Origin: Escherichia coli
GTDB taxonomy: Bacteria > Pseudomonadota > Gammaproteobacteria > Enterobacterales > Enterobacteriaceae
Direction: 5' to 3' (one strand)
Assembly (NCBI RefSeq): GCF_030013205.1
Contig: NZ_CP122648.1
DNA: 64,000 bases
The notes below the pieces were generated by a model, which ran no database searches, was not told the DNA's origin, and was given only the letters and a program-made list of their open reading frames with translations. Position numbers and translations under genes: made by a program. The first letter of the stretch is position 1. Each line of letters starts with the position of its first letter. Below are positions 29,556 to 30,060 of the stretch, one piece after another.

Positions 29556-29584
29556 AATCGTTACCTCATTTAACGGTTTGGTTA

Positions 29585-29619
29585 GAAGCCCCGTTACTGC
29601 TCCAACAGTGCGGGGCTTC
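29585..29619 (-). other. 9 bp-stem hairpin in the leader of the Icd-like/replicase operon
   Basis: gaagccccg - 17 nt loop - cggggcttc. No T-run on either strand, so it is not a simple terminator. Confidence 0.5.
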
Positions 29620-29656
29620 GTCGTTTCAATTGCTGAATTGCATGTATCAGCCCTTG

Positions 29657-29710
29657 TGGTATTCAGATTACATTTTGGTGAATACCATTTCAAGTCTTTT
29701 TTGGTATTCA
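29657..29710. promoter_or_regulatory. operator-like repeats TGGTATTCA (two direct, one inverted) in the divergent control region
   Basis: TGGTATTCA at 29657 and 29702. TGAATACCA (inverted) at 29679. ATTACA follows both direct copies. Lies between the divergent Icd-like operon and the RHH gene. Confidence 0.6.
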
Positions 29711-29754
29711 CTTTTGTATTACACTGCATCCCGTTATTAATCGGAGGTGCAAAC

Positions 29755-30060
29755 ATGTCCACGAGTTCTGTTAACAATAAGTCACAGCAACTGAATGCCA
29801 GATTTCCACATGAAGTAGTGAGTGGCATTGAGGCATCCCTACAGCCAGGGGAAACTAAAGCGAATTTTATAGTTACGGCTGTACGCGGTGAGATCGCCCG
29901 CCGCCAGGCAGAAGGAAGCGGAGAAAACCCCCTGGTTTCTTCGCTCGATGCGCTGGCGCAGGTGGAAAAAATCGGAGTCAAAGCTGCCGAGGAGATCGGG
30001 CAGCTCGTCACCGTCGCACGTGAAGAACTCCAGCGCCGCAAGGCCAAAGAATCAGAATAA
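29755..30060 (+). CDS. ribbon-helix-helix (Arc/MetJ/CopG-like) DNA-binding protein, candidate island repressor
   Basis: Manual start at ATG 29755 with a strong GGAGGTG SD (101 aa). QQLNARFPHEVVSGIEASL..KANFIVTAVRGEIARRQ fits a beta-alpha-alpha RHH pattern. One of only two plausible plus-strand genes in the island. Confidence 0.65.
   Translation: MSTSSVNNKSQQLNARFPHEVVSGIEASLQPGETKANFIVTAVRGEIARRQAEGSGENPLVSSLDALAQVEKIGVKAAEEIGQLVTVAREELQRRKAKESE

Follow-up and report, generated by a model that had tools for sequence, protein, structure and literature searches.

The immI region of phage P22 combines two ribbon-helix-helix (RHH) repressors, Mnt and Arc, the divergent promoters Pmnt and Pant, and an antisense RNA, sar, directed against ant. 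The sar RNA (annotated at 15021-15090) is 70 nt long, has its promoter in the first ant codons and starts beside the ant ATG. The C4 RNA of P1 and P7 immI (C4 RNA-icd-ant; Rfam C4 RF01695, with isrK as RF01394) and the CI RNA of P4 arise by processing of the leader on the same strand and recognise target repeats either in trans or in cis, and RNA control of this type is known in satellites related to the island described here (PMC10111431). Staphylococcus aureus pathogenicity islands (SaPIs) and other Gram-positive phage-inducible chromosomal islands (PICIs) carry the Stl/Rpr regulators, in which the Stl proteins are large helix-turn-helix repressors inactivated by helper proteins. Omega of plasmid pSM19035 is an RHH protein that binds contiguous 7-bp heptads in direct or inverted orientation. 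For Gram-negative PICIs, AlpA has been established as activator or inducer, and the existence of a repressor has been left open (PMC6092414). Here, we analyse the control region of an island of ~12 kb in the Escherichia coli chromosome, contained in a 64,000-nucleotide stretch of contig NZ_CP122648.1 (hereafter the window) and adjoining a tRNA gene at 32857-32930. The region is the intergenic stretch 29556-29754 (199 bp), between an Icd-like gene that heads a leftward operon and a rightward gene for a 101-aa RHH protein. With moderate confidence, we read it as the bidirectional control region of a PICI-type satellite, built like P22 immI, in which an RHH repressor acting on TGGTATTCA repeats is combined with a predicted antisense RNA of ~79 nt. 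All evidence is computational, and consists of sequence features, fold, covariation, strand asymmetry, and conservation and co-variation across relatives. The features of the region are as follows.

29190..29555, minus strand: Icd-like gene, 121 aa, first in the leftward operon (NCBIfam NF033153, 80.6 bits)
29537..29542, plus strand: candidate -10 of the antisense RNA, TATGCT, within codons 5-7 of the Icd-like gene
29550..29628, plus strand: predicted cis-antisense RNA, ~79 nt, comprising stem-loops 1 and 2 and the tail GUCGUUUCA
29550-29583, plus strand: stem-loop 1, with the anti-Shine-Dalgarno sequence CCUC in its loop (Icd-type)
29585..29619: hairpin hp1 (stem-loop 2), read as the plus-strand terminator stem-loop of the antisense RNA
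29657..29665, plus strand: putative operator O1 (TGGTATTCA), just past the leftward -10 with a 1-base overlap (29665), over the predicted start
29665..29693, minus strand: predicted leftward promoter, 'P_rep', with -35 TTGAAA at 29693-29688, a 17-nt spacer, -10 TAATCT at 29670-29665 and a start at ~29658
29679..29687, minus strand: putative operator O2 (TGGTATTCA), within the 17-nt spacer of the leftward promoter
29702..29710, plus strand: putative operator O3 (TGGTATTCA), on the upstream side of the -10 of the RHH gene
29720..29725, plus strand: candidate -10 of the RHH gene, TACACT
29743..29749, plus strand: Shine-Dalgarno (SD) sequence GGAGGTG of the RHH gene, 5 nt upstream of the ATG at 29755
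29755..30060, plus strand: gene for a YlcI/YnfO-family protein, 101 aa, with an N-terminal RHH (~10-54) and a C-terminal helix (59-100)

Relatives were collected as 12 reference-genome loci (Enterobacter, Erwinia, Pantoea, Klebsiella, Xenorhabdus and Photorhabdus), 80 IMG/VR loci and at least 120 further contigs retrieved through the hairpin pattern. From these, smaller alignments of 49 distinct sequences (A2/A3) and a larger alignment of 87 diverse sequences were made. Folding of the predicted 79-80-nt RNA with RNAfold gives exactly two stem-loops, at -35 kcal/mol and z = -6.75 relative to shuffles. In the second, the arms GAAGCCCCG and CGGGGCTTC (29585-29593 and 29611-29619) pair as the perfect 9-bp stem described in the initial annotation; with its 6 G-C pairs and an inner 4-bp ACTG/CAGT stem it has the stem expected of a terminator. 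The full window sequence is GAAGCCCCG-TT-ACTG-CTCCAA-CAGT-G-CGGGGCTTC, then GTCGTTTC. Islands with different flanks share a 49-bp stretch around the hairpin at 98% identity. The 49-sequence alignment has compensatory changes both in hp1 and in a second helix, CGTTA/TAACG (29559-29575), with 97.7% of cells paired and 9 pairs with double changes, a result matched by 0 of 500 shuffles (slid controls, ~40%). RNAalifold adds a lower stem, AGCCA/UGGUU, which contains G·U in most sequences. The covariation score in the 87-sequence alignment is 0.32, against 0.16 for shuffles, and the covariance model built from these 87 relatives (R1) scores 84.6 bits in the window, by construction. The GGUUAGA linker is invariant among relatives.

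A candidate -10 accompanies the structure throughout. In ~106 of 108 distinct sequences a TAnnnT hexamer begins 48 +/- 2 nt upstream of hp1, 7 nt ahead of the A that opens stem-loop 1, and its T, A and final T are invariant in alignment A2. The distance stays fixed despite a 6-nt shift of the start codon that it overlaps and despite differing N-terminal peptides. The hexamer appears as TGnTATGAT or TGnTATAAT in Ash-type islands and as TAGAAT, TACACT or TAAACT in GC-rich relatives. The RNA so delimited covers the SD and the start codon in three unrelated types of first gene (Icd-like, Ash-like and a third type). Its predicted target in the window is the Icd-like gene, with its ATG at 29555-29553 (a start conserved in alignment A2) and its SD, GAGG, at 29567-29564; the gene is a member of the Ash/Icd/Bro 'antirepressor-like' network (PMC10111431).

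The alternative that survives best, which we nevertheless hold to be unlikely, is that a plus-strand RNA exists and does not regulate the Icd-like gene, serving simply to terminate or insulate against spurious antisense transcription, or as the long 5' leader of the RHH mRNA, with the repressor supplied by read-through from the upstream promoter. Read-through is conceivable for relatives with an Arc-type RHH protein, whose ATG lies ~75-80 nt past the hairpin and lacks both an obvious SD and a -35 of its own, and the weak U tract of the window would permit it. However, the fixed-distance -10, the compensated stem-loop 1 and the invariant linker exceed a terminator, complementarity to SD and AUG extends to all three first-gene types, and in YlcI-type relatives the RHH gene has a proximal -10 (TGTGTATAAT) that is well conserved.

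The initial annotation had placed the hairpin in the leader RNA of the leftward operon. That the hairpin acts there, whether by stabilising or attenuating the mRNA or by giving rise to a processed C4/CI-type RNA as in P1 or P4, now seems quite improbable. The complement of the hairpin necessarily lies in the leftward 5' untranslated region (UTR) if transcription starts at ~29658; the window stem is perfect on either strand, folding of the minus-strand leader is good (z = -3.97), and the Bro zones of some Gram-negative PICIs are reported to contain C4/isrK-type RNAs (PMC10111431). The relatives argue otherwise. Across 21 pair positions in the 87 sequences, 338 cells are G·U on the plus strand, which on the minus strand would be A·C, whereas only 8 show the opposite change, and pairing reaches 92.5% on the plus strand against 77.9% on the minus strand. 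For hp1 alone (alignments A2/A3), the values are 98.3% and 89.8%, with 57 G·U cells and no A·C cell. The asymmetry therefore indicates that selection kept the structure in an RNA of the plus strand that is antisense to the leftward operon. We also considered a cruciform or origin at the DNA level and rejected it, because G·T and A·C are treated differently by selection, a difference that matters only in the RNA of one strand.

The sequence after the hairpin points the same way as regards the leader, with a T-rich tail on the plus strand only (mean of 4.7 T per 10 nt in the relatives, all of which are T-rich here, against 1.1 on the minus strand). Many relatives have a canonical terminator tail, UUGUUUUUUG, that the terminator scan calls, and in the window the plus-strand tail GTCGTTTC is too weak for it. 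The earlier statement that the hairpin lacks a T tract is thus correct for the minus strand and fails for the plus strand, where a weak T-rich tail follows. Rfam searches of the whole window at the gathering score returned no C4, CI or isrK, and at E <= 10 positions 26000-31500 gave no C4, isrK or other leader-RNA family; a weak partial match to RsaJ falls on the hairpin. Nothing relevant to the hairpin sequence emerged from the literature searched. What had been suggested as a C4/CI-type RNA is not borne out, but the idea of an RNA layer in addition to the repressor survives in another form, as a predicted sar-like cis-antisense RNA with its own promoter.

In the divergent region itself, the initial annotation proved accurate. 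The three TGGTATTCA copies are exact (direct at 29657 and 29702, inverted at 29679) and are the only ones on either strand of the window, where ~0.5 would be expected from length; all lie inside 54 bp, at centre-to-centre spacings of 22 and 23 bp. They form the inverted pairs I4, with 13 nt between the arms, and I2 (GTGAATACCA/TGGTATTCAC), with 14 nt between the arms. ATTACA does follow each direct copy, at unequal distances (29667-29672, 1 nt past O1; 29718-29723, 7 nt past O3), and the two boxes are explained by their each overlapping a -10, TAATCT of the leftward promoter and TACACT of the RHH gene. The leftward promoter was placed by register with relatives, in which its -35 is kept as TTGACA, TTGACG or TTGACC; the promoter scan finds it in two of them, L008 (TTGACG-17-TAATAT) and L097 (TTGACA-17-TACTAT). 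The candidate TACACT, which has no clear -35, corresponds to TGTGTATAAT, TATACT or TATATT in relatives.

Every homologue of the RHH gene has 3-5 copies of an 8-10-bp motif upstream, at about -98, -75, -53 and -30 from its ATG. The O1 equivalent lies at about -98 in all types, with O2 at about -75 and O3 at about -53. The motif differs between loci, as does the predicted recognition strand of the protein (SQQLNARFP in the window). Examples of strand and cognate motif are given below.

QQLNARF (window type): TGGTATTC
QTVAARV: GTGTTGAACAC
QSLTARI: TGTAAGAC
QLTTVRV: TGTGTTTC
(K/R)QISIRI: TGTGATTC
Q(V/L)KN(V/I)RI: GTGTGTAT
QIKNVRV: GTGTGCAT
QMTTIRV: GAGATACA

The 81 distinct regions fall into 21 strand classes, each with 3-5 cognate sites per region and ~0 non-cognate sites. 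Similar recognition strands accompany similar motif cores, and where different genera share a strand the core is kept although the surrounding DNA has diverged (Klebsiella L014 and E. coli-type L040; Enterobacter L004 and L047; Xenorhabdus and Photorhabdus and L064). In L033, a divergent relative (81% identity) with the window's strand, the third and fourth positions carry TGGTATTC(G/A). Coevolution of repressor and operator predicts that all copies at a locus change in concert, as they do here. As the sites also overlap the conserved core of the leftward promoter, the TGGTATTCA repeats are likely the operators of the RHH protein, as first proposed, and O3 presumably serves autoregulation of the RHH gene.

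We consider it very improbable that another protein binds the repeats, either AlpA or the helicase/primase with the repeats as origin iterons. AlpA is an experimentally established activator of Gram-negative PICI operons (PMC6092414), and repeated 8-10-mers at ~22-bp spacing can be iterons; yet the repeat core tracks the RHH recognition strand through all 21 classes, the repeats sit on promoter elements, the control module recombines between islands, and a separate palindromic region (27016-27116) lies past the helicase gene, where published PICI origins map.

The RHH protein belongs to the YlcI/YnfO family, matching NCBIfam NF041551 over residues 9-50 with 60.3 bits (cut-off 30), and the identical gene in another island, that of E. 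coli strain U90, is named 'YlcI/YnfO family protein' by PGAP. The AlphaFold (AF2) model of residues 1-56, made with a diverse alignment, has a predicted local distance difference test score (pLDDT) of 90 and consists of an extended segment, a helix at 19-28, a G-E-T turn and a helix at 35-54. This is the strand-helix-helix of ~45 residues, with a G-x-S/T turn ahead of helix 2, that defines the RHH superfamily, so that the earlier RHH call is supported at the fold level. In an hhalign comparison with Arc, Q12, N14 and R16 align to the base-contacting Q9, N11 and R13 (E 0.003, over 23 columns only). Tests from sequence are weak: the best Pfam match is PSK_trans_fac (E 0.013), nothing else in Pfam is found at E <= 0.1, Arc/Mnt (PF03869) included, and single remote family members match RHH_1, TacA1 and CB_ParB_C at ~1e-3. 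The full-length AF2 monomer is uninformative (predicted template modelling score, 0.33); Foldseek of this model against the PDB found nothing, and a PDB profile search gave as its sole match a helix-hairpin-helix (HhH)-like stretch of Hef (1x2i, E 0.009). The family is small, with only 79 clusters found by HMMER among 1.8 billion representatives, most of them 55-65 aa long. No match was found by tblastn in 50,697 phage records, and no function for a YlcI/YnfO protein was found in the searched literature.

In the protein alignment the N-terminal arm and the recognition strand are variable and the remainder is conserved. The C-terminal half (residues 52-101; 29908-30057) is far more conserved than the recognition strand and is modelled as a single long helix. 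It is faintly HhH-like, is absent from many family members (those of 55-65 aa), and could serve in oligomerisation or be what an anti-repressor targets.

Downstream of the RHH gene, orf59 (30118..30297, plus strand; phrog_21027, 3e-15) is conserved in 54 fetched loci and is probably co-transcribed with it; the terminator scan places a terminator-like hairpin at 30365-30384, past orf59, and these two genes are the only rightward-pointing ones in the island. That they form a toxin-antitoxin or addiction pair, with the repeats for autoregulation only and unrelated to satellite immunity, is barely credible given that orf59 has no match to toxin or defence families (Pfam, NCBIfam and PADLOC), that two of the three sites cover the spacer and the start of the divergent promoter, and that the same position in other satellites is held by Arc-like RHH proteins.

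The pairing of RNA and RHH gene is also seen in how the module is distributed. A 701-bp control region is 100% identical in strain U90, where it lies in a different island, with capsid genes, at a different site; the Nissle 1917 and O157 strains carry relatives. Parts of this query match 692 genomes among 5,426 complete ones of E. coli, and only 12 contain at least 80% of it; from the identity in U90 and the mostly partial E. coli matches, the control region is a mosaic, portable module. Searching phages with the intergenic region (blastn) gave only four short matches, none to P4. Viral contigs with the hairpin pattern number at least 120. Ninety-two motif-bearing contigs are 9 kb or longer, and they contain a helicase homologue in 78 cases, DUF4222 in 71 and an Icd-like domain in 70. 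Among the matches listed, 113 hairpin sites have enough flank to assess; a YlcI-type gene follows 115-143 nt downstream in 77, and most of the remainder have an Arc-like RHH protein of 55-60 aa with its own palindromes. Because either a YlcI-type or an Arc-like gene follows the hairpin, the RNA and an RHH repressor look like a modular pair heading the satellite replication operon.

Several side observations concern these relatives. The Arc-like partner occurs in about a third of hairpin-bearing contigs among the matches listed (for example, L097, L099, L107, L125 and L137). Its ATG is embedded in the -35 of the leftward promoter (TTGACAT), it has its own palindromic operators such as GGTAATTACC, and it has no visible SD, which suggests that its mRNA is leaderless or arises by terminator read-through from the antisense promoter. 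Six GC-rich contigs (L144, L198, L202, L212, L114 and L143) keep the order of -10, AGCCAT, stem-loop and GGTTAGARGCCC hairpin; these carriers are evidently non-enterobacterial, and the RNA motif therefore extends well beyond Enterobacterales. In some contigs the antisense-RNA motif is present twice within less than 1 kb (L084, 486-564 and 1272-1350; L106, 9715-9755 and 10501-10541), and in one such contig a degraded YlcI-like frame follows the first copy. In two loci, L001 (8791-9228) and L002 (3651-4172), PGAP calls the leftward operon's first gene a pseudogene ('incomplete' Icd-like or ash family) that extends across the hairpin and the operators; since the ATG, the SD and the RNA motif are conserved, we suggest that these calls are annotation artefacts.

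If the P22 immI-like reading is right, the switch would work as follows. In the quiescent island, the RHH protein would bind the three TGGTATTCA sites, two helical turns apart, shutting the leftward promoter and throttling its own. Occupancy of O2 in the spacer and O1 at the start should silence the Icd-like/DUF4222/helicase-primase operon, and O3, over the protein's own promoter, would provide autoregulation. A constitutive rightward RNA would start from the -10 in the first Icd-like codons and end at the hairpin as 3' terminator; being fully complementary to the start codon, SD and 5' UTR, it would block translation of the Icd-like gene from leaky leftward transcripts. Convergent transcription, from starts ~108 bp apart, may add interference as with Pant and Psar in P22. 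Induction would have to override both controls, and the known route is helper-induced AlpA (PMC6092414, PMC11773190). AlpA-dependent transcription through the small rightward cassette is one possibility, alpA being upstream and on the same strand as the replication operon. Production of the RNA, binding and repression by the RHH protein, and the lifting of the block by a helper, through AlpA or otherwise, are what we infer from these features, and with them a role for the control region as the immunity switch of the island.

A number of findings weigh against this reading. In the window, the antisense promoter is only TATGCT, without a -35 or TGn, and the hexamer lies in a coding stretch, where the enterobacterial types have His-Thr codons, which possibly explains part of its conservation. 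The window tail, GUCGUUUC, is a poor U tract that the scan does not call, and the choice of strand comes from the relatives because the window hairpin pairs perfectly on both strands. Likewise, the scan does not call the leftward promoter in the window because its -10 matches at only 3 of 6 positions. The fourth site (about -30), present in most relatives, is missing in the window, and the association between operator and recognition strand is partly shared descent, given that the DNA is tightly linked. The Rfam sar model (RF00262) reaches only 16.8 bits on the minus strand and 14.7 on the plus strand, over the hairpin part only and against a threshold of 43, and the match of the relatives' model in P22 covers only the hairpin, at E 0.17. 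Finally, published genetics of Gram-negative PICIs has induction through AlpA and requires no repressor (PMC6092414, PMC11773190).

The gene content of the island is that of a Gram-negative PICI, with closest resemblance to EcCIMP1 (PMC11773190), a related island that P22-like phages such as Kapi1 mobilise. Fillol-Salom et al. 2018 define such islands by int and alpA at one end, a replication module with primase/helicase, a size of ~10-20 kb, a specific att site and the lack of lysis and tail genes. The genes present here are int beside the tRNA, alpA, an AAA_25 helicase, PerC, ProQ/FinO and a terS-like gene. The remaining genes, all on the minus strand, are as follows.

31403-32644, minus strand: integrase (int), beside the tRNA gene
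Between integrase and alpA, minus strand: 76-aa open reading frame (orf76)
30697-30903, minus strand: alpA
After the Icd-like gene in the gene list, minus strand: phrog_340 gene
Island replication operon, minus strand: DUF4222 gene
27114-28529, minus strand: AAA_25 RepA-type helicase gene
26105-26647, minus strand: ProQ/FinO-domain protein gene (Pfam ProQ, 6e-24)
Further island genes, minus strand: PerC, DNA-transfer-like and terS-like genes

RNA chaperones of the ProQ/FinO class bind terminator hairpins of antisense RNAs, and the island's own ProQ/FinO protein might assist the sar-like RNA. As an obligate partner of the RNA it is unlikely, with a homologue in only 15 of the 92 motif-bearing contigs.

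Other parts of the island and its surroundings have features of their own. Directly past the helicase gene, 27016-27116 is long palindromic, hairpin-forming DNA that gives spurious miRNA-family matches in Rfam (28 bits, E 0.006) and is a candidate for the island replication origin. Between the hairpin and O1 is a small inverted repeat, GCTGA/TCAGC (29632-29651), and in relatives ACCTTG..CAAGGT abuts O1; the repeat could form a stem-loop at the 5' end of the leftward mRNA or provide a further site for a protein. On the plus strand, 30555-30680 has a promoter-like TTCACT-17-TATAAT (30561-30589) and a strong terminator-like hairpin (30638-30665) followed by TTTTTGTTATG, and could encode a second small RNA of ~75 nt in convergent orientation to alpA. 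Conservation of this segment extends to 44 fetched loci, and annotation of the identical U90 island leaves the 636 bp from the RHH gene to alpA without a gene. A promoter-like GTGAAA-17-TATAAT on the minus strand (31350-31378) lies upstream of orf76 and alpA, and its -35 overlaps TGGTTTTCAC at 31369, a 9/10 fit to the operator motif. We rejected this as an operator and treat it as chance because relatives of four operator types have no equivalent.

A broader claim can be advanced only tentatively, and we would not yet favour it. It is that the region represents an undescribed master immunity module of Gram-negative PICI-type satellites, derived from or shared with P22 immI, in which a sar-family RNA found from E. 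coli to GC-rich proteobacteria is joined with interchangeable YlcI- or Arc-type RHH repressors of at least 20 operator specificities, and which silences replication until a helper arrives and defines satellite immunity groups. In the searched literature we found no account connecting PICIs with either an RHH protein or an antisense RNA, nor any repressor of Gram-negative PICIs or sar-like RNA of satellites. As kinds of control, RHH/operator switches and cis-antisense RNAs are known already; it is their combination in these satellites that we did not find described. If the P22 immI-like reading is right, it would assign a function to the YlcI/YnfO family, add a widespread unannotated small RNA, explain the mosaic 'types' of control region as immunity specificities, and tie satellite regulation to the classical P22 immI circuit. 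It would also offer orthogonal repressor/operator pairs for engineering PICI-based delivery vehicles.

Of the known systems, Stl/Rpr shares with the island a divergent regulatory pair between the integrase side and the replication operon, and a repressor expected to hold the island quiescent; there, however, it is a large helix-turn-helix protein, whereas here a small RHH protein and a predicted antisense RNA would do this. Omega differs in its contiguous heptads, as the sites here are ~22 bp apart and would need bridging, possibly by the C-terminal helix. The P1/P7 and P4 systems share RNA control at the 5' end and a first gene of the Icd-like or Eta/Ash type, but the structure here is on the opposite strand with its own predicted promoter. 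P22 immI shares an RHH repressor gene divergent from the promoter it controls and operators on the promoter core. The island protein differs from its repressors in being YlcI/YnfO rather than Pfam Arc/Mnt, and single rather than one of two, although an N-terminal RHH with a C-terminal helical extension is Mnt-like. It has 3-4 dispersed 8-10-bp sites at ~22-bp spacing where P22 has one compact operator, and the island controls a satellite replication operon where P22 controls ant alone. The predicted island RNA and sar share a length of 70-80 nt, a promoter in the first codons of the target, a start beside the ATG and coverage of the ribosome-binding site, and sequence and conservation predict all elements of the sar architecture here. 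The 5' half of the island RNA is unrelated to sar, and the Rfam sar score is far below threshold. The terminator hairpin of P22 sar, GAAGCCCTGACTGTTACCGCAGTTGGGGCTTC, is nearly identical to that of the island: sar ends in GAAGCCCTG-ACTG-TTACCG-CAGT-TGGGGCTTC, then AACTTTA, and both follow the pattern GAAGCCCyG..ACUG..CAGU..yGGGGCUUC with an imperfect U tail. Across the whole P22 genome, the relatives' covariance model matches best at exactly this terminator and on the strand of sar (17.3 bits, E 0.17). Hence, the predicted island RNA is classed as a sar-like design whose terminator hairpin is probably homologous, and is not filed under RF00262.

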